Assembly (NCBI GenBank): GCA_965246715.1 | Contig: CBDFFH010000026.1 | Location: 1 to 17,089 of the forward strand | DNA length: 17,089 nucleotides | Direction of reading: 5' to 3' | Source: Chamaesiphon sp. | GTDB taxonomy: Bacteria > Cyanobacteriota > Cyanobacteriia > Cyanobacteriales > Chamaesiphonaceae | In this document: positions 1-17,089 of the stretch, in pieces | Numbering within the stretch: position 1 is the stretch's first letter | Layout of the letters: every line of letters begins with the position of its first letter | Notes under the pieces: model-generated | Databases searched by the model: none | What the model was told of the DNA's origin: nothing | The model's input: the letters and a program-made list of their open reading frames with translations, nothing else | Made by a program: the position numbers and the translations under genes

Positions 1-861
1 AGTTATCATCATCTCGTCCAGAGTGGAAAGTTACCAGGTCGAGTTAGCGACTATCTTGGTTACGATTTCGATCCCAACCGCCGAGGTTTTTGGGATTATT
101 TATTTCGGTTGCAAGTCTTGCGTGCCGATCGGATTATTACCCCATCCGAATTTTGTCGGCAGGAAGTAATTAGTTTTTTAAATGTCCAACCAGAGCGAGT
201 AACGACAACTTATTTAGCAGTCCACGAGCAATTTACCAAGCCACCACGATCGGTAATGGAACGCGAGATCGTCCTGCAATCTTTAGGGATTCACAAGCCA
301 TATTTACTCTATGTCGGCGGTTACGAACCACATAAAAATGCTGATGGGTTGCTAGAGACATTTGCCATTATCGAGCAAACTCGACCCGATCTAATGTTAG
401 TTGCTGTCGGTAGCGGAGCATTACCCGATCGACTCAAACAAAGAGCTGTAGAGTTGAATTTAGTTGAAGGGAGTGATGTTGTCTTTTTAGTCGATCTCAC
501 TACTGAGTTGACAGATTTATATGATGCTGCCGAACTATTTATATCGTTATCGTGGCGTGAAACTTTTTGCTTGCCAGCACTCGAAGCCCTCACGCGAGGC
601 GTGTCGGTAGTAGGGAGCGAATGGGGCGCACTCCCTGAAATCGTCGGCGATGCGGGGCGGGTTGTCGATCCTTGTGATTATGCGGGGGCGGCACGATCGA
701 TTATCGAGATATTGGCTACCGATCGATCCAGCAATCTCGCCCAGCAACGCGCGCAGCAATTTAGTTGGGAACAGACGACAGAGGATACTTTAGCTGTATA
801 TCGACTGTTTGCGAGCGTAGCGATCGATGAATTACAAAATAATTTAATTAGCATTAACTAG
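1..861 (+). CDS. Glycosyltransferase family 4 (GT-B), 5' end outside the window
   Basis: The frame is open from base 1 (AGT TAT CAT...), so the ORF-track start at 109 is internal. Motifs YLLYVGGYEPHKN and ETFCLPALEA (E-x7-E) are typical of GT4. Confidence 0.9.
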   Translation, partial: SYHHLVQSGKLPGRVSDYLGYDFDPNRRGFWDYLFRLQVLRADRIITPSEFCRQEVISFLNVQPERVTTTYLAVHEQFTKPPRSVMEREIVLQSLGIHKPYLLYVGGYEPHKNADGLLETFAIIEQTRPDLMLVAVGSGALPDRLKQRAVELNLVEGSDVVFLVDLTTELTDLYDAAELFISLSWRETFCLPALEALTRGVSVVGSEWGALPEIVGDAGRVVDPCDYAGAARSIIEILATDRSSNLAQQRAQQFSWEQTTEDTLAVYRLFASVAIDELQNNLISIN

Positions 862-883
862 ATCTAATACCACAGTCAATCAC

Positions 884-2083
884 ATGATAAATAGCCAGAT
901 CGACTCTAATCTATCGATAGAAGCAGCTAATAAATCTAAGAGCACAACTAGTCGCTTTAGCCCCTTAGATGGTATGAGAGGAGTTGCCATTTTATTGGTG
1001 ATTTTAGTTCATACCTTCACATATGAGGGCAGTTCTGTATTCGGTCGAAGCCTGGACACACTCACCCGTAGTGGATGGATTGGTGTAACCCTATTTTTTG
1101 TGCTCTCAGGATTTCTAATTACTGGGATCTTGCTGGATACTCAACACAAGCAGCACTATCTCCGCGATTTTTTTGCTCGTCGCTCCCTACGAATTTTTCC
1201 ATTATACTTTGCCTTTCTCGCTATATACTTCTTCGTTTTACCACATCTTCCTGAGGCTTTAGTGAAGTTACCTCAGCCACGATCTGGAGACTACATTTAC
1301 TATTGGTCTTACCTCACTAATATGAAGGAATGGCTGAGTGGAACTATAGACAATGTTGCTCCACTATCTCCGTTATGGTCGTTGGCAGTGGAGGAACAGG
1401 TCTATTTATTCTGGCCGTTTCTAATCGGTTTAGTTCCACATCGATGGCTGCCAAAGGTCTTAGTAGGGATCGTCATTTTTTCTTTTGCTTGGAGATTTTT
1501 AACGAGAGCGCTCGGGCAATCGATCTGGATATCGTATGGGTGGGCACCAGCTAACCTAGATTCATTTGCGGCTGGTGCGTTTGTTGCCTGGCTATCGCGC
1601 GATGCTGGTAAATCGCTCAAGATCTGGGCACCACGACTTGCGATCGCCTCAAGCTGTTTTCTGGTTGGCATGTTTATCGGGCAAAAACATTTCAGTTTTT
1701 GGCAGGCTCCCGTACAAATGCTAACTGTGGGAATCAGTGGCTTGGTAATCTTTTTTGCCAGTACGATCGGGTGTTCTGTCACATTTAGCGATCGATCTTT
1801 GCTCAATAGATTACTCTCCAATTCCTGGTTGCGATCTTTAGGTAAGTATAGCTACGCAATTTATTTGTTTCATTCTGTAGTAGTTGAGCTGGTGGCTCCG
1901 ATTATTTTCTCTCCTACAACTGGCTTCATCCGAGGTCGAGATATCTTTGGTGGTTTACTCCTAACTGGAGTTGTGACAGCATGTTCTTTCGGTCTAGCTT
2001 ATTTATCTTGGTATGGCTGGGAAAGTCAGTTTTTACGCTTAAAAAGATATTTTCCATTAAGTGGCAAAGTAGTTCGGCTCTAA
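884..2083 (+). CDS. Membrane-bound acyltransferase family 3 (OafA/YrhL-like)
   Basis: Motifs LDGMRGVAILLV, GVTLFFVLSGFLIT, RRSLRIFP, LWSLAVEEQVY and LGKYSYAIYLFH; many hydrophobic segments. Confidence 0.93.
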   Translation: MINSQIDSNLSIEAANKSKSTTSRFSPLDGMRGVAILLVILVHTFTYEGSSVFGRSLDTLTRSGWIGVTLFFVLSGFLITGILLDTQHKQHYLRDFFARRSLRIFPLYFAFLAIYFFVLPHLPEALVKLPQPRSGDYIYYWSYLTNMKEWLSGTIDNVAPLSPLWSLAVEEQVYLFWPFLIGLVPHRWLPKVLVGIVIFSFAWRFLTRALGQSIWISYGWAPANLDSFAAGAFVAWLSRDAGKSLKIWAPRLAIASSCFLVGMFIGQKHFSFWQAPVQMLTVGISGLVIFFASTIGCSVTFSDRSLLNRLLSNSWLRSLGKYSYAIYLFHSVVVELVAPIIFSPTTGFIRGRDIFGGLLLTGVVTACSFGLAYLSWYGWESQFLRLKRYFPLSGKVVRL

Positions 2084-2168
2084 TCTTAGGCGCTATTTAT
2101 AAATTTCGATCGACCGTAACGATCGAGGGTTAGCAATTTAATCTCAAAAATTCATTATTTATTTAGCT

Positions 2169-2768
2169 GTGATGTTAATTGTTAAGCCGATCGAATATAT
2201 CAATGGTAAGCTCAATGGTTTGCGGCTGCATCGGCAAAGATTGTGGCTGAAACTTCATGGCATCGAGTTAGGTGAAAATGTTTATATCGGTAAACATGTC
2301 GAGATCCAGCGTGCCGCTAATAGTGGCTTAAAAATTGGCAATAATGTAACGATCCTCTCGTATACGCATATCTATGCCAATCCTGGCAGTCAGATTGACA
2401 TCGGGGATGATACTTTTATCAGTCATCATTGCGAAATTGCCAGTTCGGAACGGATCGTTATCGGCCAGAAATGTGCGCTGGCGGCTTACTGTACCGTCAT
2501 CGATACTGACAAAGATTATACCGATCTGTCAACCCCAATGCCTTTGCGTCAGGCAATTACCAGCCCGATCGAGCTGGCCGAAAATGTGTGGTTGGCTTAT
2601 AAAGTTACCGTCCTTAGAGGTGTGTCGATCGGTCGGGGTGCCGTCGTTGGTGCAAATGCAGTAGTCACAAAGAATATTCCAGCATATTGCTTGGCTGTGG
2701 GGATACCCGCAAAAGCGATCGAGCAGTTTCAGAAAGTCGAGCGCGAGATAGTTTGTACGCATGACTAA
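2169..2768 (+). CDS. Hexapeptide-repeat (LbH) sugar O-acetyltransferase
   Basis: IGxxxxI hexapeptide repeats and the C-terminal GVSIGRGAVVGANAVVTKNIP...GIPAK motif. Confidence 0.9.
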   Translation: MMLIVKPIEYINGKLNGLRLHRQRLWLKLHGIELGENVYIGKHVEIQRAANSGLKIGNNVTILSYTHIYANPGSQIDIGDDTFISHHCEIASSERIVIGQKCALAAYCTVIDTDKDYTDLSTPMPLRQAITSPIELAENVWLAYKVTVLRGVSIGRGAVVGANAVVTKNIPAYCLAVGIPAKAIEQFQKVEREIVCTHD

Positions 2769-4305
2769 AACTATCTCCCGAACGCGGCGGGCAACATGGA
2801 CTTATCTGAGTAGCCTCCTGGGCTTCATCGGTACCAATGTTTTTGCCTTTGTTGCCACGCCCATAATTTTGCATTTGCTTGGTGAAGAAGCATTTGGTGT
2901 ATTTAGAGTAGCTAGCGATTGGACGGGTTATTTAACATTGTTAGAATTTGGTGTTGGTGGTGCCTTAATTCCGGTGTTAGCACGAGCATGTGCGAAAGAG
3001 ACAAAGGAGCACATCGGCTTGACGGTCGCGATCGCGATGCGCTCTTATCTATTTATCTGTGGACTGATGTTAGTCTTGGGTATAGCCCTGACCATGTTTA
3101 TCCCCAACTTAGTGCGGGTCAGTCCGAGCCTGACGACTAATTTACAATGGGGTGTCGGGTTTAGCGTGCTGGGGTTGTTGTTATTTCCACTTACGACTTT
3201 TCAAGTACTAGCGCAAGTCAGTCAGCGCGGTTATATCTTTAATGCACTCAATTTAGTGCAAAATATCTCGATTAATATTTTCTCACTGTTATTTGCTTGG
3301 CTGGGTCTGAGTATTGCCGGACAATTTGCCGCAACATTCTTAGGTAGTCTACCGTTGTATATCGGTCTGACGATCTTTTTTGTCCGGCTGTATCCCAATG
3401 TTTTCTCGACGATTTTTACTAAATCAACGGAATTAAAATTACAGATCGAGCGGGAGTTATGGCAACTTAATTGGCCTGTATTTATTATTAGTGTTTGCGG
3501 TCGATTTAGTCTGATGACCGACAATATTATTATCGCTGGAGTCCTCGGGCCGAGTTTAGTCGCATCATTTTTCTTGACTCAGCGACTGCCTACTTTAGCT
3601 GCCAACCAGATTCAGGGGATCTCAGCCGCAAGTTGGCCGGGATTGGTCGATCTCTACCACAATGGCGAAACCGATATCTTCTCACAACGGCTGGTCGAAC
3701 TGACCAAATTAACGGTAGTAGTTGGTATTGCCATTTTATTGCCAGTTACAGTTTACAACTCGAATTTTGTATCGTTATGGGTGGGAAAAACTCAATATGC
3801 TGGCGAATTAGTCACAGTTTTTGCCAGTCTGAATAACTTATTACTGGCGGTGTTTTCACTATGGACGACATTATTAATCGGGATTGGGAATGTTGCTTTA
3901 CTAGTTCCGATCGTGGTGTGTTCGGCGATCGTCAATTGTACGCTTAGTTGGCTCTGTACCGTCCATCTAGGTGTGTCGGGGCCGTTAATCGGGACTTTTA
4001 TTGCTTTCATGACAACCTATCTCTGGTGGCTGCCCTGGCTGTTTCAGCGGGAGTTGAAGATTCCGATGTGGCAGTTACTAGGCGCGGTCGTCAAACCGTT
4101 TGCGATCGGCATACCGTTGGGCTGTTTCTTATGGTTTTTTACTAGGGATACGCTGGAATTTGGCTGGATTGGTTTGGCACTAAAAATATGTTTAGCGATC
4201 GCAATTTATATATTACTAGCTTTTGGTTTACTGCTAAATAAGTCCGAGCGTGCCAATCTCTTAAATCGCTTTGCTAAGTTCATTCCTGCTAAGACAATTC
4301 ATTAA
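2761..4305 (+). CDS. wzx: Wzx-type oligosaccharide flippase (MOP superfamily)
   Basis: 514 aa, multi-TM; TPIILHLLGEEAFG and TDNIIIAGVLGP motifs; overlaps the upstream gene by 8 nt within a polysaccharide cluster. Confidence 0.85.
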   Translation: MTKTISRTRRATWTYLSSLLGFIGTNVFAFVATPIILHLLGEEAFGVFRVASDWTGYLTLLEFGVGGALIPVLARACAKETKEHIGLTVAIAMRSYLFICGLMLVLGIALTMFIPNLVRVSPSLTTNLQWGVGFSVLGLLLFPLTTFQVLAQVSQRGYIFNALNLVQNISINIFSLLFAWLGLSIAGQFAATFLGSLPLYIGLTIFFVRLYPNVFSTIFTKSTELKLQIERELWQLNWPVFIISVCGRFSLMTDNIIIAGVLGPSLVASFFLTQRLPTLAANQIQGISAASWPGLVDLYHNGETDIFSQRLVELTKLTVVVGIAILLPVTVYNSNFVSLWVGKTQYAGELVTVFASLNNLLLAVFSLWTTLLIGIGNVALLVPIVVCSAIVNCTLSWLCTVHLGVSGPLIGTFIAFMTTYLWWLPWLFQRELKIPMWQLLGAVVKPFAIGIPLGCFLWFFTRDTLEFGWIGLALKICLAIAIYILLAFGLLLNKSERANLLNRFAKFIPAKTIH

Positions 4306-4335
4306 ATATCAATTGTAAAAACATTAGAGAAGTTT

Positions 4336-4869
4336 ATGTCATCATCGATCGTCAGACGCTTGCAACTGCTTGCCAATCGCTTACCAGAGCCACTAGTCGA
4401 TAGCCACATTCGCGCGCGCACGCTAAGAAAATATGGTGCGACGATCGGCACCGATACTTACATCAGCCGACAGGCAAAGATTGCTACACCATCGAGCATT
4501 CGGATTGGTAATGAGTCGGTGATTTCGCGCGATGTGTCGATCGATGGTTGGGAATTAACGACGATCGGCGATCGTGTGCTGATCGGCGTTGGTGTAACGC
4601 TTCTCACTGGCAGTCACGATATCCATAGTCCGATTTTTGATGGCAAATTATTGCCGATTACGATCGAAGATTATGTGTGGGTAGCACAGAATGCGATGAT
4701 TTTGGGAGGCGTAACGTTGGGATACGGTAGTGTTGTCGGTGCGGGTGCGGTGGTGAGAGAGAGCGTACCACCTCTAGCTGTCGTCATCGGCAATCCCGCA
4801 ACAATAGTCACTTATCGCAAATGCTCGGAGTTTACACATTCTCCAGGTAAATTTTTGCTAGGTTGTTAA
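4336..4869 (+). CDS. Hexapeptide-repeat acetyltransferase (WcaF/maltose acetyltransferase-like)
   Basis: Motifs LLTGSHD, PITIEDYVWV, GSVVGAGAVV and GNPA. Confidence 0.9.
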   Translation: MSSSIVRRLQLLANRLPEPLVDSHIRARTLRKYGATIGTDTYISRQAKIATPSSIRIGNESVISRDVSIDGWELTTIGDRVLIGVGVTLLTGSHDIHSPIFDGKLLPITIEDYVWVAQNAMILGGVTLGYGSVVGAGAVVRESVPPLAVVIGNPATIVTYRKCSEFTHSPGKFLLGC

Positions 4870-4972
4870 TATTCATCGCCCAGACGATCGCCGATCGATC
4901 TTACGATAGAGCGAGATTATTTCGATAGAATCAAACAGTTTAAACTTTTATTACTTCGACTCTAAATGGTCT

Positions 4973-4992
4973 GTGGGCAGTGCCCACCCTAC
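4973..4992 (-). repeat. REP-like GTAG + palindrome unit
   Basis: The minus strand reads GTAGG-GTGGGC-ACT-GCCCAC: a GTAG foot followed by a perfect 6-bp stem. Confidence 0.6.
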
Positions 4993-5170
4993 TGGGACGA
5001 CACTACTGTTTGCGCTAGTGCTGTTATCGTTCGTGATGATCGTCGGTGTGCCTGTTGCTTACGCAGCACCACAAAACTGGGATCGATCGAAACAACTCCT
5101 GTTCGTCGGTTCGGGAGCTTGGACGATTTTAGTCGTGGTCGTAGGTGTGTTGAACTTCCTCGTCGTCTAG
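4973..5170 (+). CDS. psbZ: Photosystem II protein PsbZ with an atypical N-terminus
   Basis: [27 protein letters not shown]...VGVLNFLVV is clearly PsbZ, and it sits next to ribH as is common in cyanobacteria. The usual MxxxFQ start is absent, so the start codon is uncertain. Confidence 0.9.
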
Positions 5171-5314
5171 ATTGCTCGGTATGAAGATCGACTGTTAGAA
5201 CGCATCGATGTCGTCATTACAGTCGATCGCTTTGCTAGAAAGCCTCCAATCTAGTAACTGGCTTCATCACTCATACTTCGACTATGCTCAGTACAAGTAA
5301 TTCATAATTTTTAG

Positions 5315-5806
5315 ATGTCAGTTTTTGAAGGCACTCTCGTCGCAGATAGTTCTCTGCGGTTTGCGATCGTTATCGGTCGGTTTAATGACCTCGTTACTAA
5401 TAAACTCCTAGAAAGCTGTCAGGACTGTCTCAAACGACACGGAATCGATATCGACCCTGATGGTAGTCAGGTAGACTATGCGTGGGTGCCTGGGTGCTTT
5501 GAGGTACCACTGGTGGCAAAGAAATTGGCGCTATCCAAACGCTATGATGCGATTATTTGTTTGGGCGCAGTAATTCGGGGCGATACACCGCATTTTGACT
5601 ATGTATCTTCGGAAGTAGCTAAAGGTGTTGCTAATGTTGCATTTCAGACTGGTACACCAGTAATTTTTGGGGTGCTGACGGTGGATACCATGACTCAAGC
5701 TTTAGAACGAGCGGGGATTAAGGGAAATCACGGTTGGGGTTATGCACTCAATGCGATCGAAATGGCTACGCTCATGAAAACCATGCCTGCGGAAGTGGGA
5801 GCGTAG
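5315..5806 (+). CDS. ribH: 6,7-dimethyl-8-ribityllumazine synthase
   Basis: Motifs [30 protein letters not shown] and QALERAG. Confidence 0.97.
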
Positions 5807-5859
5807 GAGCTTAACTGATATTTGCCTAACGTGAGTTCGGGTTGAGGATATTGCCTCCG

Positions 5860-6009
5860 CACTAGCACCGCACTCGATTGAAATCGGTGCTAGTGGTTCA
5901 AAGTCCGCCTTCGCGGACTAAGATATTCAGTCCGCGAAGCGAAAAGTGCTGCTGAGGCGCGAGCTTTTGGGGGGAAGCTTCCCCCCCAAAACGTCGCTTC
6001 GGGTCGGTC
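5860..6009. repeat. Composite palindromic repeat, copy 1, with nested hairpin inserts
   Basis: Stems CACTAGCACCG...CGGTGCTAGTG, CTTCGCGGACT...AGTCCGCGAAG and TTTTGGGGGG-AAGCTTC-CCCCCCAAAA. 5881-5949 matches 12020-12088 at 65/69. Confidence 0.85.
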
Positions 6010-6580
6010 GATTCGTGACAAGTTAAGAAAAGCCGATAGTTGTCAAGGTTGGAAAGAAAAGAGGTGAAACTGTGATGAGGAGTGAGTTAGAGTCTAGGAT
6101 GTGAGCCATGCCAAAAAAGCGGCGCACTGTGGGCGGGTTTCCCGCCCATACAAGTGCGACAAGACAGCGGACAACAAATCGCGACCAAGTCAACAAGCGT
6201 TATCACAACGATTCCTGACATTTCCTGCCGAAATATTTGAGAGAGTATTCAAAGAATTACTGCCAGAATTCGAGCGAAAATGGCACAGCCGCAAGCAAAG
6301 GCCACTGCCAGAAAGTATTCAATTTGCGCGGACTAAATTTGCCAGAATTTGGGCGTGCGATGGCTCAACATTGGAAGCAGTATTTAGAAAACTAGAGAGC
6401 CTATCGACAGTACCGAAAAATCAATTAGCTGGAAAGATTGGAGTAGTTATCGACATAGTAACTCGACTACCAGTAGAAATTTGGTTTCAGGAGAATGAAA
6501 AAGCCAGTGACATGAGGTTTGAAGTAGACATGCTGAAGCTAGTTAAGCCTCAAACATTAATGTTACTAGATCGAGGATTC
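6010..6580 (+). mobile_element. IS4-family transposase remnant (internally deleted, 3' truncated)
   Basis: SQQALSQRFLTFPAEIFERVF, IWACDGSTL (first catalytic D) and LLDRGF (second D), after which it breaks off. The likely original start is ATG 6108 (MPKKR...TTNRD) in another frame, joined at ~6187. The left end near 6010 is approximate. Confidence 0.8.
6120..6167 (+). repeat. 48-nt hairpin mini-element inserted in-frame in the IS4 transposase 5' end
   Basis: CGGCGCACT-GTGGGCGGG-TTT-CCCGCCCAT-ACA-AGTGC-GACAAGACAG, with AGCGG at both junctions. Removing it gives MPKKRTTNRD. Confidence 0.7.
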
Positions 6581-7040
6581 AGGCATTAGCATAGATTTCC
6601 CACACACTACCAGCGATCGCACCCTGTAAGCCAGAGCTAATATTGACCCAGCTTTTTCCTAACCAATCATTTAGCAGGTATCCCATTATAGCACATTTGT
6701 TCTGGTCTAGATCTTGGCGATAAGGAATAGAATTTCCACTCCAAGGCTCTATCTCTCGATCGAAACCGAACAAGAATCCATTTTGAGCGAGATTAGTGTG
6801 AACTTTGGGCTGTAATGTGTCCCAGTCGAAGTTTAACTGTCCGCCTTTCGATCGAACGTGATGGCTAAGTCCGCCAAGAAACGCCACCCCAAGGTGACTC
6901 AGAAAGCTACACTTTTGAAAATCAAGGGTCAAGTCTAAGGAGGTTTCAATTTTTTGGTTTACTGTTTGCCAGATCTCTAATAAGGCTTGGCAATGCTTAG
7001 ATGTATGATAAATGACGGGGATTTCTATTTTGACAGTCAT
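6579..7040 (-). pseudogene. Truncated STAS-like + GHKL/HATPase-type ATP-binding protein
   Basis: N-terminal LDFQKCSFLSHLGVAFL is STAS-like. The ORF ends at WEIYANA, which resembles the start of a HATPase N-box, exactly where it meets IS4 sequence. Confidence 0.6.
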
Positions 7041-7053
7041 GTAGTCGATCTAT

Positions 7054-7160
7054 CTAAGCGGTTTGTTGAAGCTCGGCATATTGCCAGTACGTGATGCCTG
7101 CATCCTCGCGGTGGATGAGCAGCCCAAACCATTGTAATCGAGCGAGATGTTCGCCATCGC
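7054..7160 (-). pseudogene. Orphan diverged duplicate of the 3' end of the MmeI-like gene
   Basis: Translates to GEHLARLQWFGLLIHREDAGITYWQYAELQQTA*, compared with GENLDRLQWFGLAIDREDAGIVYLQYAELQQTA* at 7864-7965 (27/33 aa identical). Confidence 0.9.
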
Positions 7161-7293
7161 GCCTTTGGTTCTTCATTACCGATCTTTGTCAAGCCGCCTG
7201 GATCTAGCCGTAATGGTAGAGATCGAGATAAAATTGAGATTATCGATTGCTTGCGTGTCGTCGAGTTGTTACTAATGTTTTTGAGCGATCCTG

Positions 7294-7488
7294 ATGAATA
7301 TTCGCGAACGAGTCCTCAAAGAAACCGAAAATGTCTCAGATATTATCTTGTCAGAAGTGCTGGAATATCTGCAATACCTGAAAGCCAAACACCAACAACG
7401 AATTCCCGAAACCGCTCTACTGAGTGAGTCTGTGCTGCAAGAAGATTGGCTCAAGCCTGAAGAGGAAGCAGCATGGCAAGATTTATAA
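7294..7488 (+). CDS. DUF2281-type putative antitoxin
   Basis: 64 aa with EVLEYLQYLK and LLSESVLQEDWLKPEEEAAWQDL; overlaps the downstream toxin gene by 16 nt. Confidence 0.8.
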   Translation: MNIRERVLKETENVSDIILSEVLEYLQYLKAKHQQRIPETALLSESVLQEDWLKPEEEAAWQDL

Positions 7489-7808
7489 GGGGTGATATCG
7501 TCATAGTTCCTTTCCCCTTTTCGGACTTAACCCAAACGAAACGCCGTCCCGCATTAGTAGTTGCAATTTTGCCAGGTGAGGACTTAATTCTTTGTCAGAT
7601 TACCAGTCAAACCATAATGGATGAATATGCTGTCCTAATCTCCGAGGAAGATTTTATTGCAGGCGGTTTAAGAGAACGCAGCAATATTCGACCAAATCGA
7701 TTATTTACGGCATCTGAAAACATTATCATCTACAAAGCTGGTCAAATTTCACTAGAAAAATTGGATAATGCGATCGACAAGATCGTTGAAATACTGCAAA
7801 AGTTTTAG
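7473..7808 (+). CDS. PemK/MazF-family toxin (type II TA)
   Basis: Motifs RGDIVIVPFPFSD, KRRPALVV and CQITS. Confidence 0.92.
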   Translation: MARFIRGDIVIVPFPFSDLTQTKRRPALVVAILPGEDLILCQITSQTIMDEYAVLISEEDFIAGGLRERSNIRPNRLFTASENIIIYKAGQISLEKLDNAIDKIVEILQKF

Positions 7809-7823
7809 TCAAGTGGTTACGAC

Positions 7824-7856
7824 ATATCCCCGACTTCTTGAAGAAGTCGGGGATAT
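7824..7856. terminator. Perfect 16-bp inverted repeat between convergent genes (possible bidirectional terminator or dispersed repeat)
   Basis: ATATCCCCGACTTCTT-G-AAGAAGTCGGGGATAT; no clear poly-U tail. Confidence 0.55.
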
Positions 7857-10056
7857 CGCAATCCTAAGCTGTTTGTTGGAGTTCGGCATATTGCAAATAG
7901 ACTATCCCTGCATCTTCTCGATCGATCGCCAGCCCAAACCATTGTAATCGATCGAGATTTTCACCAATCGCATCCAATTTCTTCTGGGCATTTTTGCCTG
8001 TAAATTGGTTGGAGATCTGCGTCACTGTCCATTCACCACCACTGCTGCGTAACAGGTCGCGGATGGCGGCGAGTTGGTCTTTGGGTTGGTTCGACCATTT
8101 TTGCTGTTCGAGGGGTGCGATCGCGATTTCTGCTTCGTCTGTGATGCCTGGGAGGGTGGTTTGGGTGGCTTGAATTGTTTCGGGGGCTTGGTATTCGGGG
8201 CGGAGCCAGCGGATATGTCCGTTCCGTTCTTCGACGGCGCGTTCGGCGTTGAGGGCGACGAGACGTTCGAGGATGGTTTCGGTGATTTTGGGGTTAGGTT
8301 TACCTGCTAAGTCTTGCCAACCGTAGGCGGCAAATACGGCTGTGTCGTCTAGATAGGGCTTTATTATTTTCCCTAAATACTTATATCCCCACTTTTGCAT
8401 CTCTGATTCTTCAACCAAGAAGCCAGAACCATGCAGACAAACTCCTCTGCCTGAAAGTCTGTCATTACTTTTTAATTGATTGCTGCTAAGAATATTTGCA
8501 CCCGATCTGAGGTCGCTGAAGATTTCGCCGACACCGTGCCATTTAAAATCGAGTTTCTCTGCACGATCTTCTGGTGTTTCTGCCAAGCCTTCATCGATTA
8601 CATATCCTAATCGCATGATTCTTGTTGTTGGCAAATCGTTGAATTCAGCCCCAGTCATAGCAATTCTTACATCTGCTCCACTATCAGCCCACAGGTGATT
8701 AGGGATTGCAAAAAATAATCTAATTGCTTTTTTGGCAGCTAAATGATTTTCGATTACTTTTCTTTGCAAAACCTGACTTATGCTGTTTGTCGTAATGAAT
8801 CCAAATCTGATCAGCTTCTCATATTTTAGTAAAATTGCAGCTTTTTCCCACCAATACATTACATAATCGACAGTCTCAGGAACTTCTTTATATGTTTGTC
8901 TAATTGTTTCTGAATAACCATCTCCGAGTGATTCTCTCATCCGTGAATTCCCAATAAAAGGAGGATTTGAGACGATATAATCTGCATCTGGCCATACCGC
9001 AGCGCGGGGATTTAAGTACTTGTAAATAACGACTCGATCGAGCGGATCTGGTACATCCTCACCTGTCACCGGATGCTTCATCATCTTGCCACCCCAACGC
9101 GATCGAACCTCCCCCGTTTTCGCGTCTAGATCTGGCTCTGTACCGTCATAAGCCAACACCGCATCCCGACATTCGATATTCCCAAACGCTTGTAATACGG
9201 GTTCCGGTGGTGCTGCATCGCCATACCGCTTAAAATACCATTGCAGATACCCAATCCAGATTACCAGTTCGGCGATCGCCGCCGCACGCGGATTGATTTC
9301 GATGCCCAAAAACTGCGCCGGATTCACCTGCTCCAACACATTCAACTGGACATTTCCCGCCACATCTACTAGCCGTGCAATGGCTTCTTTCTCCAACCCT
9401 TTCAATAAATCCAGCGTCACATACAAGAAATTCCCCGTACCGCAAGCCAGATCTAAAATCCGCACCTGGCGTAACTGCGTCAAAAAGGCTTGAATCTCCT
9501 GCTCCGCCTTCTTCTGCTGCGCCGCTGTCGGTTCCTTCCCCTCAGCCGTGACTAAAATCCGCCGTAACTCCAACTCCACCTCATCCCACTGTTGGCGCAA
9601 CGGTTCCATCACCACCGGACGCACCAACCGCTCCACATACGATCGCGGTGTATAATGTGCCCCTAAGCGGCTCCGCTCTCTCTTCTCCAACGCCCGCTCT
9701 AATAACGTCCCAAAAATCGCAGGCTCTACCTGACTCCAATCCTTCGCCGCTGCTGCATACAAGATTTCCAACTGTTCCTTGGGCAAGTCAAACGCCGTCG
9801 CATCTTCAAAAAAGCTCCCATTAAACCGCAAAATCCGCTCGAAGCCGAAGGTTCCACCTGTATTCATCGTTTGCCAAAGCTGTTCGATTTCGGGCTTAAA
9901 TGTGTGCGGGTTGGGAATCCAGCGATCGCGTAATGCCTTGGTAAATACCTCCCCCTTCAATAATTCCACATCCTCGGCAAACATCGTAAAAATACACCGC
10001 ATCAAAAAGTTCGCCACCTCATGCGCCGAAACGGGCGATGGTTCGCTGTCGATGCC

Positions 10057-10195
10057 GCCGTCGATTGAAATCGAGGCTACTGGTACAAAGTCCGCCTGCG
10101 CGGCCTGAGATCTAGAGTCCGCCTTTGCAGATTTGGCACTAGTCTTAGTCCGCGTAGGCGGACTTTGCATTCCCAGCGGCGGTTTCAACCGCTGA
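10057..10195. repeat. Palindromic repeat of the 5860/12020 family inside the RM coding sequence
   Basis: CGATTGAAATCG, CAAAGTCCGCCTGCGCGG...CCGCGTAGGCGGACTTTG and AGCGGCGGTTTCAACCGCT; the reading frame is preserved. Confidence 0.8.
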
Positions 10196-10546
10196 GGATT
10201 CTCCTCCAACCACCGCGACAACTTCGCCAATTCCGCCGCTACTTCTCGCGTCACCCGCGCCCGATATTTCTCAGGATTGAGCGATTGCGGATCTGTGAAA
10301 ATTGCCACAAACCTGTCAAATATTTCTGGTTGCGCCAGATCCTTGAGATTAATTGTCTGACGCGCCCCATAACTCCCATACTCGCCGCTAAACCCCTCCC
10401 ACACCTCAAAATGCGAACCGATATCGCAGGTCATCAAAAACGGTGGTAGCGATGGCAACATCCGGTTATAGGCATAAGATTTCGGGCGTTGCTGGATTGA
10501 GGTATGATTGGTATCGATCGCCAATAATTAATTTGGGTTAAAAGTA

Positions 10547-11322
10547 ATGGAATGTCCTGAATGTAAGTCAGTCCGCATCAATAAGAACGGTTGCAAAAGA
10601 GGGAAGCAGAACTATATTTGTGTGGAGTGTGGTAGGCAATTTATAGAGAATTATGAATCTCCCAGAGGATCTGCCCAAGAAATTAAACAAGAATGTTTAA
10701 CCATGTATGTAAATGGCATGGGATTTAGAGCAATTGAGAGAGTCAAAGGAATTCATAATACAACGATAATGGATTGGGTGAAGCAAGTAGGTGAACTCCT
10801 ACCAGATTATTACGACCCAGAGCTAACGCCGGAAGTAGGTGAGTTAGATGAATTAGAAACGTTTGTGGGGTTTAAAAAAACAAAATCTGGCTGTGGACAG
10901 CAGTAGATCACTTCCGCCCAGGAATTTTAGGATGGGTATTAGGAGACCACAGTGCTCAAACATTTAAACCTTTATGGGATGAGGTAGTAAATAAGTGGAA
11001 ATGCTACTTCTATGTCACAGATGGGTGGCCAGTTTACCCAATGTTTATTCCTGATGGAGACCAAATCGTTAGCAAGACTTACATGACCAGAGTAGAAGGA
11101 GAAAATACTAGACTGAGACATTATCTAGCTCGACTAAAACGCAAAACACTTTGCTATTCTAAATCTACACAAATGCTCAAGCATTCAATTCGCTTACTTA
11201 TTGCGTTGCGGGTGACCCGCGACGCTCACTATCTAAAATTCGATCGAGTGCCAATTCCCACATCAATTAATAGTCACGATCTTAGAGCGCGAGTACCACT
11301 CGATCGCCAAATCATACCTTAA
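10547..11322 (+). CDS. IS1 transposase InsA-InsB, joined by a -1 programmed frameshift
   Basis: Zn ribbon CPEC...CVECGRQF, HTH, ELDELETFVG, slippery TTTAAAAAAAC at 10871-10881, then KIWLWTAVD...YVTDGW...VEGENTRLRHYLARL in the -1 frame. Confidence 0.9.
11203..11226. repeat. 24-nt hairpin inserted in-frame in insB
   Basis: GCGTTGCGGG-TGA-CCCGCGACGC-T; adds ALRVTRDA within IRLLI|HYLKF. Confidence 0.7.
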
Positions 11323-12019
11323 TCCAGCAACGCCAGATTTCGCTTGGTTGAATGCCTTCTGCATCTCATCCCGATAGCCCTTTGTCCCCCGCTTGCCATG
11401 CCCCTTGCTCGAATTGGTACTACCCTGCTTCGCCTCAATCAGGAAGTGACCCTCTTTATAAAAGTCCGCAAATCGCGTCGTCTCAGCCTTCTCACTGAAA
11501 AATTTGATGTTTTTGTCAAAACAATAGCGATCGCCTTCGACACTGCCTTTTGGGGGTGGTACTGGTACAGCTAGAGCCACGCACAGATCGCCAAAAAAGG
11601 TTTGATAATTCGCCCGTTCGTTTCCTTCCGAACCCAACCACTTCTTGAGAAAATCCCCAACTCTTTTGCTATCCGTATCCTTCATTCCAGTCCGAACCTA
11701 ATTAAATATTTCAATCGGATAGCGTCGTCTTCAGCCAAATCACTTCCTGGTCGCTAGAAAGCGATATCCGCGATTCATCAATGAGATCGATCTTTCAAAT
11801 CTCCTGTAATTTTACCTCTATATATCGATCGGGCCACTCTCTAGATAGTCTTTGCACTATATCGATCGACTCTCGAACTCATATACCCACAGGATCTTCA
11901 CCGCTTAGATCGGTTCAGAGCTATAACTTAGGTTATGCCCATAACTCAGACGATGGTAATATGCTGAAATCTATACTACTGGCTTTTTACGTCGGGAAAC
12001 AAAGGTGTGCGCGCATCGC

Positions 12020-12165
12020 AAATCGGCGCTAGTGGTGCTAAGTCCGCCTTCGCGGACTAAAATATTCAGTCCGCGAAGCGAAAAGTGCGGTCTTGGGGTT
12101 TCCCCAAGTAGAGCACCTTTTAAAGACAGGCGGACTTTGTATTCCGAGGAGTGGTTTTAACCACT
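12020..12165. repeat. Composite palindromic repeat, copy 2, with a 51-nt insert
   Basis: AAGTCCGCCTTCGCGGACT...AGTCCGCGAAG[12079-12129]GCGGACTT, followed by AGTGGTT-TT-AACCACT. Confidence 0.85.
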
Positions 12166-12188
12166 TTGAGGGTAGGTAGCAACTTGAG

Positions 12189-12506
12189 CTACTTATCGAT
12201 CTCCGACTTCATCCGCTCCAGTGTCATATTCATCTGGTCAAACATTTGATGCGGCGTGATGCCAAACTGACTCATCTGCGTGTTCATCTGCTCGACCGTC
12301 ATTTTTGCCATGAAGTCATCAGACAGTTCAAACCGCTTCATAAAAATCCGATACCGATCCAGTAAGGTTTCCATCCGCTCGATAAACATCACCTTACCTT
12401 CGCGATCGAATTTACCATAGCTACCGCCCAGTTGGGTCAGATGTTGATAATCTTCAAACAACTGTTTGGCTTCTTGTTGGATGATATCAGAATCAAAAAA
12501 TGCCAT
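12189..12506 (-). CDS. DUF1825 family conserved cyanobacterial protein
   Basis: Motifs FFDSDIIQQEAKQLFEDYQ, YGKFDREGK and FMKRFELSDDF. Confidence 0.85.
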   Translation of the reverse strand: MAFFDSDIIQQEAKQLFEDYQHLTQLGGSYGKFDREGKVMFIERMETLLDRYRIFMKRFELSDDFMAKMTVEQMNTQMSQFGITPHQMFDQMNMTLERMKSEIDK

Positions 12507-12634
12507 GACGGTTAAAAATATATTAGTAAGGTTAAACTTAAAATTAAGAGCGTGACTCGATCCACTCGTGTTTCCATCTTAAGTCAGTCTCCAGCCCATG
12601 ATAACTGCGGTTTACCGTATTTGAGGATCGGTCA

Positions 12635-13009
12635 ATGTTCGATCGCGCGACACCCAAAAATCGTCAAGTTGCCATAATGTTAGCCTTCGTCGGGATGATG
12701 CTCCCCGTGGCTGGATTTCATAAATTTTATCTCGGACAACCCGTTTGGGGTGCGATTTACTTATTATTATCTTGGACACCAATTCCGCATATCGCTTCTG
12801 CGATCGAGGCTGTCTGGTATCTTACTCAAGATAGTACACACTTCGATGGAAATTTTAACTCGCATGGTTTGAATGCTGCGTCAGTAGCTACCCAACCCGC
12901 CACTACCGCCATCGATACGATCCGCGAATTGGACAAACTCCGCGCCGACGGATTGATCTCCGAATATGAATTCGAGCAAAAACGCCGTCAATGGCTCGAT
13001 CGAGTTTAG
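12635..13009 (+). CDS. TM2/NINE domain membrane protein with C-terminal SHOCT domain
   Basis: GFHKFYLGQPVWG (TM2) and IRELDKLRADGLISEYEFEQKRRQ (SHOCT). Confidence 0.85.
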   Translation: MFDRATPKNRQVAIMLAFVGMMLPVAGFHKFYLGQPVWGAIYLLLSWTPIPHIASAIEAVWYLTQDSTHFDGNFNSHGLNAASVATQPATTAIDTIRELDKLRADGLISEYEFEQKRRQWLDRV

Positions 13010-13171
13010 CGGAATTAGGGGGAGGGGATAAGCGATAGAATAAAAATAGCTCCTCTCATTGATATTATTTACAATCTGTAGGAGGAGGTTCGTGGGAGTA
13101 TCCGGCGATATTTATCAGTAATCTTCCAACAACAAAACCTACCCTCCTCACTAGACTGAAATAGCCCTGAG

Positions 13172-13199
13172 CTAACCCCTAACCCCTAATCCCTATCCC
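13172..13199 (+). repeat. Degenerate tandem heptamer repeat (STRR-like)
   Basis: CTAACCC CTAACCC CTAATCC CTATCCC. Confidence 0.65.
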
Positions 13200-13209
13200 C
13201 TAAATTAAC

Positions 13210-13755
13210 ATGGTAAAAATTGTTGGCATTGCAGGTAGTTTGAGACCGGATTCTTACAGCCAATTCGCCCTACAAGTAGCAGCACAAAAGCTCCAAGCGT
13301 TGGGTGCAGAAGTAGAAATTATGGACTTACGACAGCTGCAATTACCATTTTGTGATGGTAGTAAGGAATATCCCCAATATCCCGATGTTACCCGACTCCA
13401 GACTGCTTTCAGTCAAGCCGATGGCATGGTTTTAGTTTCGCCAGAGTACCACGGTAGTGTCAGCGGCGTACTCAAAAATGCTTTGGATTTGATGAGTTTC
13501 GAGCAACTCTCTGATAAAGTGGCGGGATTTATCAGTATTTTAGGCGGACAGAGCAATAGTAATGCTCTCAACGAAATGCGGATAATTATGCGGTGGGTTC
13601 ATGCGTGGTCGATTCCCGAACAAGTTGCCATCGGACAAGCTTGGCAAGCCTTTAGCCCCGAAGGTAAACTGACGGATGACAAACTTTCAAAACGTCTCGA
13701 CGAATTTGCTAGTAGTTTAGTCGAGAATACCCGTAAATTACGCGGGATTAATTAA
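13210..13755 (+). CDS. NADPH-dependent FMN reductase
   Basis: Motifs GIAGSLRPDSYS and SPEYHGSVSGVLKNALD. Confidence 0.93.
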   Translation: MVKIVGIAGSLRPDSYSQFALQVAAQKLQALGAEVEIMDLRQLQLPFCDGSKEYPQYPDVTRLQTAFSQADGMVLVSPEYHGSVSGVLKNALDLMSFEQLSDKVAGFISILGGQSNSNALNEMRIIMRWVHAWSIPEQVAIGQAWQAFSPEGKLTDDKLSKRLDEFASSLVENTRKLRGIN

Positions 13756-13800
13756 GTTGAATTCGATCGTGTCATCGTAAATTTATCACCTATAATTCCC

Positions 13801-14334
13801 TTGACTCACGACCCCTCCCGTACCGTTCAGTTTTTCTTTAAAATGTCCTTGCGATCGCGGATTCTCGAAGACCCATACTATCGGTTCAAATCGGCATTTG
13901 AGATTGCTGTGGCTGCTGATTTGGGAGTAACGATCGATGTCAATCAAGCGAACGTAGATGATTGGTTGCGATTGCCTGGAATTTCGATCCATCAAGCGCG
14001 ACAATTAGTTACGCTCAGCCAATCTGGAGTCGCGTTTCATTCGATCTCCGATCTAGCGGCGGCACTCAGTATGCCGATCCAAAGATTGCAATGGTTGGCT
14101 CCGGTATTGAGTTTTCAATATTATGAGCCGACGCTAGCTTTGCCATCTGTCAAACTCGATCGCGCCACAGTAGACGAGCTACTTCAAATCCCGCAAATCT
14201 CTCCAGAATTAGCGACTGAAATCATTAGCCAGCGCGAGCAAGGCGGGAATTTTAAAGATTTAGTCGATTTTCAACAACGGCTGGGTTTGTCTGGTGAATC
14301 GATCGGTGAATTAATGCACTATCTCCAATTTTAG
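13801..14334 (+). CDS. ComEA-like helix-hairpin-helix DNA-binding protein
   Basis: Two HhH units, IDVNQANVDDWLRLPGI and ATVDELLQIPQI...FKDLVDF. The start may be ATG 13843. Confidence 0.85.
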   Translation: MTHDPSRTVQFFFKMSLRSRILEDPYYRFKSAFEIAVAADLGVTIDVNQANVDDWLRLPGISIHQARQLVTLSQSGVAFHSISDLAAALSMPIQRLQWLAPVLSFQYYEPTLALPSVKLDRATVDELLQIPQISPELATEIISQREQGGNFKDLVDFQQRLGLSGESIGELMHYLQF

Positions 14335-14467
14335 CAATGGATCTAGCAATCCTAAATCGATCGTGGGATTCGATCGTCTTAATTATTGAACTTCGACATT
14401 AATGTTATCGGTAAATATAATAATTGCAGTTGGATCGTTGTCGCGAGCATAATTACGGCGGATATTT

Positions 14468-15053
14468 TCAAGATCGATCGAATTGCCGAAACTCCTTGAT
14501 TGCTTGCAGATGATTGGACAGAGCGATACAGCGAACTAATAGCTGAATATCCAAACGGGGCAAAACTTGAGATCGATCGATTTTGACATACCCAGTATTG
14601 CCAAGTGCGTAGAGAGATAACTCGCCTTTTTCCCAAAACCATCCTTCAGCAATCTGCAAGCGTTCGTAAGCGGTTAATTTATCGATCCCGCCACTCGTGA
14701 CAACTACCTCGATTGCTAAATCGGGACGCTCTTTCATTCGTACCTAATTCGTAAGATTTATCTGCTTCGCGTTTGACTGAGCCAGTTTCACTTTCGAGTG
14801 TCAAAGATTCGGTTGGCACAAAATCTAATCCAATCGTTTCCAGATGTGCCTCAATCAACGCACCGATGCGACCTTTAATTATTTCATGTTGTCTTCCTGG
14901 CATCTGCCGAATCTCCAATACTCCATCTAAGAAAGACAGCCGCACACCAGGACGAGCGAGTAATTGCTCCGTGGCTTTAAACTCACGCCATGTCATCCCG
15001 CCGATTAAAATCGGTGCAGCCGATCGATCGATAATTAGTGGTGTTGTAGCCAT
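14468..15053 (-). pseudogene. Uma2-family endonuclease with a +1 frameshift
   Basis: The upstream frame has DGVLEI, HEIIK and EADKSYELG. The downstream frame has PDLAIEVVVTSGG and KLTAYERLQIAEGW. One extra base lies near 14735-14738. Confidence 0.85.
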
Positions 15054-15169
15054 AACAACTCGTCAATTTATCTAAATTGTAAGCTCTAGCAACATCATTT
15101 AACGACTCAGACAAAGCATTGGGACTAGCCAGTAAGTTAAAATGAGCTGACAATCGATCGAGAGTCCAT

Positions 15170-16363
15170 ATGACTGCTGCGCCCAAACATCAGAAAGCCA
15201 AAGCCCTAAAACCCAATAGCAAACGCCCTGCAAAGGAACTGTGTAGCGAATGCGGGTTGTGCGATACCTATTATATCCACTATGTCAAAGAAGCTTGTGC
15301 TTTCCTCAATCAGCAGATTCCCGCCCTCGAAACGCAAGCCCACGGGCGCAGTCGGGATTTAGAACGCGAAGACGATCTCTACTTTGGCGTGCATCAGCAG
15401 ATGATGGCGGCGCGGAAGATCGATCCGATTCCTGGCGCTCAGTGGACGGGAATCGTAAGTACGATCGCGATCGAAATGCTAGAGCAGGGGCTGGTAGAAG
15501 GCGTTGTGTGCGTCCAAAATACCCCCGAAGACCGTTTTCAGCCAATGCCGATTATCGCGCGGACACGGGAGGAAATCCTAGCAGCAAAGGTGAATAAACC
15601 CACGCTTTCTCCCAATCTTTCGGTACTGGAGCAAATCGAACAGTCGGGATTGAAGAAGCTCTTAGTCATCGGTGTCGGCTGCCAAATTCAGGCATTGCGG
15701 GCGGTTGAAAAGGAGTTAGGGTTGGAGAAATTGTATGTATTAGGCACTCCCTGCACCGATAACGTCACCCGCGCCGGATTGCAGAAGTTTTTAGAAACCA
15801 CCAGTCGATCGCCAGCGACTGTCGTTTATTATGAGTTCATGCAGGACTTTAACGTCCATTTCAAACATGAAGACGGTTCGACCGAATTAGTACCATTTTT
15901 TGGACTAAATACTAAGGAACTCAAAGACGTATTCGCACCATCCTGCTTGAGTTGTTTCGATTATGTCAACTCGCTTGCCGATCTCGTCGTCGGTTATATG
16001 GGCGCGCCATACGGTTGGCAATGGATCGTCGTCAGAAACGATCGCGGCCAAGAGATGCTAGATTTAGTCAACGACGCAATCGAAACTCAAGCAGTAATGT
16101 CTAAAGGCGATCGTACCGCCGCAGTCCAACAGAGCATCCCAGCCTACGATAAAGCGGTAACTCTGCCAATGTGGGTAGCGAAGATGATGGGTGTCGTCAT
16201 CGATAAGATCGGCCCAAAAGGACTGGAATATGCGCGGTTTTCGATCGATTCTCACTTCACTCGCAACTACCTGTTTACCAAACGCAACTATCCACATAAA
16301 TTAGAACAACACGTCCCAGAATTCGCCAAGAAAATCGTATCTCGCTACAAGTTACCAGAATAA
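15170..16363 (+). CDS. bciB: Ferredoxin-dependent 3,8-divinyl chlorophyllide 8-vinyl reductase (FrhB-like, Slr1923 type)
   Basis: Motifs RPAKELCSECGLCDT, GAQWTGIV, GVGCQ, GTPC, YEFMQD and SCLSCFDY. Confidence 0.88.
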   Translation: MTAAPKHQKAKALKPNSKRPAKELCSECGLCDTYYIHYVKEACAFLNQQIPALETQAHGRSRDLEREDDLYFGVHQQMMAARKIDPIPGAQWTGIVSTIAIEMLEQGLVEGVVCVQNTPEDRFQPMPIIARTREEILAAKVNKPTLSPNLSVLEQIEQSGLKKLLVIGVGCQIQALRAVEKELGLEKLYVLGTPCTDNVTRAGLQKFLETTSRSPATVVYYEFMQDFNVHFKHEDGSTELVPFFGLNTKELKDVFAPSCLSCFDYVNSLADLVVGYMGAPYGWQWIVVRNDRGQEMLDLVNDAIETQAVMSKGDRTAAVQQSIPAYDKAVTLPMWVAKMMGVVIDKIGPKGLEYARFSIDSHFTRNYLFTKRNYPHKLEQHVPEFAKKIVSRYKLPE

Positions 16364-16401
16364 TTGAATGGTAATTTAGAGAATAAATTCGTCATCAGCC
16401 T

Positions 16402-17089
16402 ATGCAGTCACTAAAAATAATCATTACCCTGATAGTATTAATTACTCTGGGCATTATCGTGGGGTCTAATCTCATCCCCACGATGACAGTGACGCTGTTA
16501 AATCAACCGACGATCGCATTGCCTGTTGGCTTGTGGCTGGCGATCGCGAGCGGCTTAGGACTATTATCTAGTAGTATCTTTCAATTTTTAATATTTTTAG
16601 ACCGTCGGCTACTCGAGCGCAAGATTCGACAATTACAATCGCGATTGAAACAGGATGAAGATATCTTCACCTATACTTCCGAACCACCAAAAGTCGATTA
16701 TCGGAATGAGGCGCGAGTTTCGACGGAAACACCAGGCGCAGCATCAGAGCCACCCGCACCAAAAAAAAAGCATCTTTAGTAGCTATAAAGCAAATTTTGC
16801 TGACAAATTCAAATCTAAACCCGTCACTAACAGGGTAGTCGATGATGACGATGACTGGGACGCAGCAACCGTCTCGAATAATCAATTAGAGTGGGACGAT
16901 CCTGCACCACAACCACGCCAACAAAAAGCCAACTCTACCACCTCGCCAAGAGCGCAGTTATCCAGCTCCTCGGCAAACCTTTGTAAGAGATGTCGAACCA
17001 CCTCGACGCGATGAAGTGTACGATGCCGACTTTAGATTGATCCAGCCACCATATAAACAACCCGCTGCTGAATTAGAATATTTCGATCG
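16402..17089 (+). pseudogene. LapA-like membrane protein with acidic/Pro-rich tail, two apparent +1 frameshifts, runs off the window
   Basis: Two TM helices including LPVGLWL. It continues in the next frame after A9 at 16761-16769 (DDDDDWD), then in the third frame (EVYDADFRLIQPPY). Confidence 0.65.

Follow-up and report, generated by a model that had tools for sequence, protein, structure and literature searches.

Prophages and islands that integrate into tRNA, tmRNA or protein genes restore the gene with a new 3′ end and leave the old end displaced beyond the insert. Here we analyse a locus of the cyanobacterium Chamaesiphon sp. at which an MmeI-like Type IIG restriction-modification (RM) gene is followed by a second copy of its own 3′ end, with a toxin-antitoxin (TA) pair in between. 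The whole stretch of DNA, called the window below, is 17,089 nucleotides long (contig CBDFFH010000026.1 of assembly GCA_965246715.1, positions 1 to 17,089). Three described processes lead to a comparable layout. At rhs loci, in a process named C-terminal displacement, an incoming end with intervening genes pushes the old end downstream (Jackson et al. 2009, PMC2935791); the fragments are of variable length, homologous recombination is held responsible, a circle is proposed, and no integrase figures in that account (PMC2935791). Effector-immunity modules of type VI secretion systems (T6SS) are displaced one after another through homology-facilitated illegitimate recombination (Kirchberger et al. 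2017, PMC5361080). Finally, RM genes can be inserted with a long target duplication (Furuta, Abe and Kobayashi 2010, PMC2853133). Cases of the latter are mostly from naturally competent species, one being cyanobacterial; they were defined by R and M genes inside the insert, a repeat >30 bp and an insert <20 kb, and the repeats listed are near-identical (PMC2853133).

Sequence comparison showed that the last 33 codons and the stop of the RM gene are repeated 810 bp downstream, on the minus strand. The attached end (end B, 7864-7965) and the orphan end (end A, 7054-7155) are identical at 82 of 102 nt and 27 of 33 amino acids, a divergence resembling that between alleles: 18 codons are identical, 9 differ by synonymous and 6 by replacement changes, the stop is kept, and there are no internal stops. 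They align locally with a score of 62, and 200 codon shuffles never exceeded 16. In minus-strand order, end B is followed by a repetitive extragenic palindrome (REP), the TA pair on the plus strand, end A and, 13 bp further, a STAS-HATPase gene. An earlier reading made from the sequence alone (below, the sequence-only reading) had described the duplicated ends around the TA pair in just these terms, down to coordinates, amino acid identity, stop and order. We consider everything from end B through end A to be the probable scar of a homology-anchored, additive recombination at a gene end. In the feature lines and below, G000 is the genome under study, other G numbers are congeners, L numbers are loci and C numbers contigs; X3 and X4 are metagenome runs of one study.

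7054..7161, minus strand: end A, the orphan RM end; 33 codons stay in frame up to 7155, and homology extends as far as about 7161
7162..7293, plus strand: region upstream of the TA pair and a spacer of about 60 nt, without RM homology
7294..7488, plus strand: predicted antitoxin, 64 aa, overlapping the toxin start; faint DUF2281 match only (E 0.07)
7473..7808, plus strand: PemK/MazF-like toxin gene, 111 aa, open (Pfam PF02452, E 7e-9)
7824..7856, no strand: REP-type palindrome directly after end B; hairpin z = -6.7, a dispersed repeat
7864..7965, minus strand: end B, the terminal 33 codons of the RM gene with the stop, attached to an 886-aa open reading frame (ORF); 98% identity to sister genome G011 over the final 63 nt

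Positions 6468-7853 recur in a public contig with zero differences; this contig may derive from the source sample, and so counts against mis-assembly and not as independent support. The promoter and terminator scan of 6950-8050 gave no signal exceeding shuffles, and an exact search with a 23-nt piece of the spacer had 0 matches in 185,579 genomes. End A was also considered as a small protein: an in-frame ATG would give 40 aa here, but an extra base in X3/X4 breaks the frame, and the idea was rejected. Another RM copy as source of end A was sought within G000, and none was found in the genome.

Like integrase-made displaced ends, the layout has a gene restored by a new 3′ end and an old end beyond the insert; unlike them, it has no integrase (serine recombinases were not searched), apparently no fixed core, and inserts below 1 kb. 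As in Rhs and contact-dependent inhibition (CDI) loci, orphan fragments of variable length lie downstream in the same orientation. At rhs, however, the old end that moves downstream bears the variable toxin tip, along with its immunity gene, and what is gained is a new protein end, whereas here a conserved terminus is displaced, the protein is hardly altered and the gain is unrelated downstream cargo; moreover, many unrelated genes, and 5′ ends too, serve as anchors. With the T6SS arrays the process proposed below would share a one-sided homology anchor, an additive outcome with the newest cargo proximal, and later spread by ordinary recombination, but those arrays hold cognate effector-immunity pairs at dedicated loci (PMC5361080), while here TA, RM and other defence-type genes lie behind RM and housekeeping genes. 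The RM inserts of Furuta et al. resemble our locus in having long, variable direct repeats round an insert without mobility gene (PMC2853133). Here, in contrast, the RM gene serves as target, the repeats agree at 80%, and the insert of the 810-bp unit is the TA pair; the whole island, flanked by a 47-nt repeat, fits the Furuta pattern better and may come under its definition. The principle is already published for Rhs and T6SS arrays, and the layout described here works alike without being a member, because here it is a conserved terminus that has been displaced, and because of the unrelated cargo. No description of this layout for TA or defence cargo behind RM or housekeeping genes in cyanobacteria was found in the open-access literature.

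The DNA that follows orphan ends matches the DNA that follows attached ends elsewhere. Over the 70 nt after end A, the sequence downstream of the attached RM end agrees at 62 positions in G007, 60 in G003, 58 in G020 and 47 in G008. In these four congeners the attached RM stop is followed by the STAS-HATPase gene, and in G020 the RM gene is a fully open frame of 1156 codons; a HATPase gene directly behind an intact RM gene, which the sequence-only reading had called for, was therefore seen. The same agreement was found for two RM stacks from metagenomes, with HicAB cargo, at 70 of 70 positions for L185 and L188 against L186 and 65 of 70 for L187 against L184, with unrelated comparisons at 15 or fewer. 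No such match was found for L210 and L224, and for the orphan of L184 only G023 gave one. Elsewhere, the attached stop is followed by the REP of end B (G011, G015, G019, and also L185, L187 and L188) or by another repeat family (G004, G017, G021, G024, G042). As for the origin of the parts, G000 and G020 share 92-94% identity in the RM 5′ segments and the STAS gene, against 84-85% for two housekeeping genes, and identity to G020 is 87% for end A and 79% for end B.

Part of the unit also occurs in a different context. The cassette-plus-orphan (7053-7777) recurs on contigs of X3 and X4 at 98% identity, 14 differences and 2 gaps setting it apart. Homology of the X3/X4 contigs ends at the orphan stop codon, beyond which X3 has 1343 nt of other DNA, and one extra base in this copy makes the junction read through a CGATCG hexamer. 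In the HicAB family (L184, L185, L187, L188), the region of the cargo-orphan junction is common, and the orphan allele and the DNA downstream differ. Both patterns fit an orphan that functions as second homology arm, and they mean that end A may largely have come in along with the cassette. Displacement of the resident RM end and its cargo by incoming DNA is thus upheld as far as polarity goes; that end A is wholly the old end of the resident does not follow, as it may be cassette-borne.

To see how often RM genes carry orphans, loci were scanned in the genus (20), in a 401-genome draw from the phylum (32, 35 genomes being matched) and in metagenomes (67), and the 73 loci that matched well and had 1.5 kb or more of downstream sequence were counted. 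A same-strand copy of the gene's own 3′ region was found in 10 of these 73, compared to an opposite-strand match in 1; orphan RM ends behind TA or defence cargo do recur, as had been anticipated. Orphans reaching the stop were present at 7 of the 73 loci, versus 13 of 1206 long ORFs of G000, RM included. Orphan-bearing loci split into 6 of 15 genus-like and 4 of 58 others. They represent the locus in the window, the HicAB family (L184, L185, L187 and L188, with traces in G019 and G023), G003, L210, L224, L219 and, weakly, L172, with cargo that comprises HicA/HicB-like genes, a YafQ-type pair (L210), GmrSD (L224) and FitA/PIN (L219). The orphans measure between about 30 and 150 nt, and junctions lie at about -93, -103, -110 and -153. 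A second full RM gene downstream was found in 0 of 73 loci, and none of them had two or more orphan RM ends; the strains with several orphan ends that the sequence-only reading expected have a counterpart at gltB (see below). It had also expected varied genes after the RM end. These exist, and are weak, unspecific evidence, because neighbours of ribH vary as much in the genus. Some further observations concern these loci. A QatC-like (QueC) gene and a partner lie directly behind the orphan RM end of G007 (L037:2990-5049). At L185, L187 and L188, a 24-nt element sits in frame in CGATCG sites of RM tails, in ends and orphans, in either orientation; it resembles SDR5, a HIP1-targeting small repeat (PMC4390886).

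The same layout was found at genes unrelated to RM. A genome-wide scan covered 3328 ORFs of G000 with at least 200 codons, after removal of multi-copy and full paralogue matches. A copy of the 3′ end lay downstream on the same strand for 17 genes, and a copy of the 5′ start upstream for 13, while the control geometries gave 2 and 4 (wrong side) and 2 and 2 (wrong strand). Clear cases are glutamate synthase (gltB), aconitase B (acnB), methionine synthase (metH) and DNA polymerase I (polA). Changes in the gltB, acnB and polA orphans are mostly synonymous rather than replacement (56:17, 22:7, 14:2, 11:3 and 16:2). The cargo includes PemK, PIN, HNH, AbiEii-type ATPase, NB-ARC and Fic genes, and metabolic genes as well. 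At gltB of G000 (C2:213400-233888, L251), four displaced 3′ pieces alternate with TA pairs of the PemK and PIN types and with further cargo, and the most distal orphan is followed by the DNA found after the gltB end in sister G011. Similarly, what lies downstream of the gltB orphan of G018 is what follows the attached end in G006, and the DNA behind the acnB orphan of G000 matches that behind the attached end of G003. An orphan was present in 7 of 16 congener gltB loci, picked partly for multiple matches. Six gltB junctions, in five genomes, fall at -214 to -228 beside a CGATCG site, the others at -956, -1541 and -1809. The gltB and acnB orphans are themselves internally deleted. The RM terminus is thus not a dedicated capture platform, for gltB, acnB, metH, polA and other genes bear like scars in G000.

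Downstream of acnB (C51:1-18997, L252) lie HNH, AbiEii-type ATPase and PIN genes as cargo, along with two or more further displaced copies, about 1 kb in size; congeners have a methyltransferase-type cluster at the position of this cargo. At metH (C2:161436-164984, L254) a displaced end of 1371 nt, 99.6% identical, is found 4.4 kb downstream, around an NB-ARC gene; this displacement is a very recent event and lends itself well to the study of junctions. The case of polA (C13:8574-11495, L253) is a mirror image, with a displaced 5′ start of 242 nt located 684 bp upstream, differing by 16 synonymous and 2 replacement changes.

The mechanism that we propose starts with a donor carrying another RM 3′ allele and the TA pair, which would cross over into the resident RM gene; the resident stop and its STAS-HATPase cargo would be pushed downstream, not replaced. 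In a first step, homology on one side would anchor the incoming DNA, and the far end would join by short microhomology inside the tail of the resident gene. Alternatively, a small circle might integrate by one crossover and so found the orphan. In a second step, for which the patterns described above lend some support, the copy of the gene end left after the cargo, roughly 100 nt, would serve as second homology arm, and the unit made of cargo and orphan end could enter any allele by ordinary recombination, landing before older cargo. Later IS (insertion sequence) insertions and deletions have left the locus in decay. As comEC and dprA are present in G000, natural transformation may have been the route; genes resembling the REP-associated tyrosine transposase (RAYT) are present as well. 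The search for tyrosine recombinases gave 23 matches in G000, none of them on C26, C22 or C51 or in the gltB stack, and serine recombinases were not searched; within that range, the locus is integrase-free, as the sequence-only reading had it.

Junctions were compared with the position of CGATCG, hand-read from alignments. The hexamer lay within 8 nt of the junction in 6 of 9 gltB cases (which may share ancestry for all six), 0 of 2 acnB cases and 3 of 4 RM cases, for backgrounds of 13%, 2% and 27%, respectively, and the L210 junction falls exactly at such a site. An unbiased genome-wide test yielded 4 of 22 versus 9.7% expected (P = 0.16), which is not significant. A role of CGATCG as junction microhomology is hinted at by the X3/X4 junction, L210 and the gltB cluster. 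Repeat content, like the flanking genes, points to a cyanobacterium: the frequency in G000 is 738 per Mb for TCGATCGA and 456 per Mb for GCGATCGC, close to the 750 and 448 per Mb given for Chamaesiphon minutus (PMC4390886), which suggests a Chamaesiphon-like genus. One may go further and imagine recombinase-free, integron-like, self-propagating defence arrays, where the orphan copy would make cargo portable and stack it before older cargo, and where microhomology at the hyper-abundant CGATCG (highly iterated palindrome, HIP) would found cassettes, giving HIP a role in gene gain. We hold this extended view to be doubtful.

Several points weigh against additive recombination at this locus. The 73 RM loci are redundant, and those with orphans collapse to about six events. 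Among the 17 and 13 genome-wide cases, several are short, paralogues or rich in replacements. Deletions are rife in these islands, so that some orphans may be trimmed remnants of longer copies. The 5′ RM part of G010 is equally close (89-94%) as that of G020, which makes the mosaic signal a modest one, and a tree of the 102 nt is poorly supported. In X3, the DNA on the toxin side (185 nt) and that beyond the orphan stop could not be read. Lastly, in material consisting of contigs only, no circle or excised intermediate was seen, and no joint skipping the cargo between both ends was present among the joints listed.

The RM gene and its surroundings comprise the following features.

6101..6589, plus strand: remnant of an IS4-family transposase cutting the STAS-HATPase gene (NCBIfam transpos_IS4_1, E 1e-12, below cut-off)
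6579..7040, minus strand: 5′ half of the STAS-HATPase gene (Pfam; 93% aa identity to G020)
7864..10524, minus strand: main remnant of the MmeI-like Type IIG RM gene (Pfam MmeI_Mtase, MmeI_hel, MmeI_N)
10482..11337, plus strand: IS1-family element lying within the RM gene, with inverted ends of 28 nt; C51 and C36 carry copies at 99%
11340..11685, minus strand: 5′ piece of the RM gene, about 117 codons, severed by IS1
11928..11974, minus strand: 47-nt direct repeat, 85%, with its partner at the far end of the island (C22:107050-107096)

The RM gene is a pseudogene in the window, broken by the IS1 element, by a repeat insert at 10062-10191 and by a deletion that took out about 220 aa in frame where codons 726 and 727 now meet (near 8346), most of the target-recognition domain (TRD) included. 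Its intact homologue in G020, a single chain with N-terminal nuclease, helical spacer, adenine methyltransferase and TRD, scores above cut-off with all four Pfam MmeI models, compared to three for the window copy with its mostly deleted TRD, and reaches 1414 bits on the PADLOC REase_MTase_IIG model. Large internal deletions of the RM gene were found in G000, G011, G007 and G042, and its C-terminus is matched in 16 of 26 congeners. Across the genus the gene sits in at least five different chromosomal neighbourhoods, and its target-recognition region is only about 60% identical between alleles, with flanks at 85-95%.

Upstream of the RM gene in the window lies a DUF1825 gene. In 19 of 26 congeners a penicillin-binding-protein (PBP) gene lies within 1.5 kb after DUF1825; contig C22 carries the HATPase half, a PIN-like fragment and the PBP gene, and the island therefore entered the DUF1825-PBP gap. 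An empty site with a single 47-nt repeat was found in none of the 26 congeners. Sister G011 retains an RM remnant, end B and half a REP at DUF1825, and a 31-nt PIN remnant at PBP, the two being set apart by two copies of one IS, which gives independent support to the island reconstruction. The TA pair and the STAS gene were not found in G011. A tRNA-integrated element was considered and rejected, with no tRNA in the window; 3 of 20 genus loci have a tRNA-Ser upstream of RM, and its 3′ end faces away. Elsewhere in the window, psbZ-ribH (5005-5926) duplicates C47:164524-165443 at 99.7%, and it is the neighbour on C47 that agrees with G011. Repeats and an IS4 remnant border the window copy, which indicates an IS-linked rearrangement or a mis-join.

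As for the cargo, the PemK-family toxin with its small, overlapping upstream partner would be a type II MazEF/PemIK system by sequence, and in 4 congeners the 64-aa partner and the toxin are found together at non-RM loci, at about 75% nucleotide identity. The suggestion that the pair stabilises the locus is contradicted: the RM and STAS genes are both wrecked, and the island version of sister G011 is without TA pair. Being the island's only intact piece, the pair is compatible with self-retention and not with protection of neighbours. The STAS-HATPase gene of the sequence-only reading was found in part, as the STAS portion lies in the window and the HATPase half does not; the 3′ half is on C22 (107653-107411), the IS4-type remnant cutting the gene. 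In congeners, it is the first gene of a cluster of STAS-HATPase, DUF4325 and PIN-like genes. This trio is conserved behind RM (L023:8490-10366, L019, L021), in some cases with a pair of XRE-M78 peptidase and PIN-like genes after it. Its first gene matches the N-terminus of the PADLOC DrmA model (E 2e-10), and the trio is a candidate defence module. The REP palindrome is a genome-wide repeat, not specific to the RM locus, and adjoins a RAYT-like gene in L047 and L048 (73 bits, below the 80-bit cut-off). In G011, an IS sits in the centre of a REP palindrome at both C3:1692600 and C3:1073240, about 620 kb apart and with flanks exchanged, which suggests REP-targeted insertion plus inversion.

Four other explanations of the two ends were weighed. 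Two tandem RM-cargo islands, or a local duplication, might have been reduced by deletion until only the last 108 nt of the second RM gene remained, and the large internal deletions of the RM gene in four genomes, together with those inside the gltB and acnB orphans, speak for such losses. Against it stand the absence of any second full RM gene downstream in the loci counted, the lack of RM 5′ or promoter homology in the DNA upstream of end A, and the synonymous excess, which counts against decay following a local duplication; random loss would not favour stop-reaching ends in mirror geometry either (17 and 13 versus 2 and 4). We judge this explanation unlikely. A site-specific recombinase acting in trans, with gene 3′ ends as attachment sites, would likewise leave displaced ends, and would find candidates among the 23 tyrosine-recombinase matches in the genome; the clustering of six gltB junctions and the one region shared by HicAB junctions would agree with it. 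Yet the cargo at the RM locus and in the gltB stack has no integrase in or near it (serine recombinases not being searched), orphan lengths vary within one gene (-214 to -1809 at gltB, about -30 to -153 at RM), and many unrelated genes and 5′ ends are affected, which makes such an enzyme quite improbable.

That RM activity itself caused an insertion with long target duplication after DNA breakage, as put forward by Furuta et al. 2010, would accord with the 47-nt, 85% direct repeat flanking the whole island in the DUF1825-PBP gap, and with the enrichment of RM loci over the genome background. The insert between the 102-nt repeats is, however, a TA pair without R and M genes, the repeat belongs to the RM gene, and gltB and acnB show the layout no less often; we regard this as very improbable. 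Scarcely any weight is left for placement of the TA pair by REP/RAYT activity or for an assembly artefact. REP adjoins the toxin, and RAYT-like genes exist in the genome and beside homologous TA pairs, but REP follows attached B-type ends that lack the window TA pair, and a REP insertion gives no diverged gene end; it could at most explain how the TA pair first reached end B. The contig does hold IS copies and the psbZ-ribH duplicate, as an artefact might; the artefact version is contradicted by the 20 differences among the 102 nt of the ends and by the presence of the TA-orphan join on contigs from other runs.

The RM locus is a decayed example of what is probably additive recombination at a gene end; for study, gltB and acnB of the same genus are better suited. 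A CGATCG bias at junctions, if upheld, would bear on the old question of the function of HIP1-type repeats. If our interpretation is right, candidate defence genes could be found cheaply by looking between a gene and its displaced end, and defence and TA genes can accumulate behind ordinary conserved genes without integrase or transposase, which would provide a simple route to defence hot spots in naturally competent bacteria.

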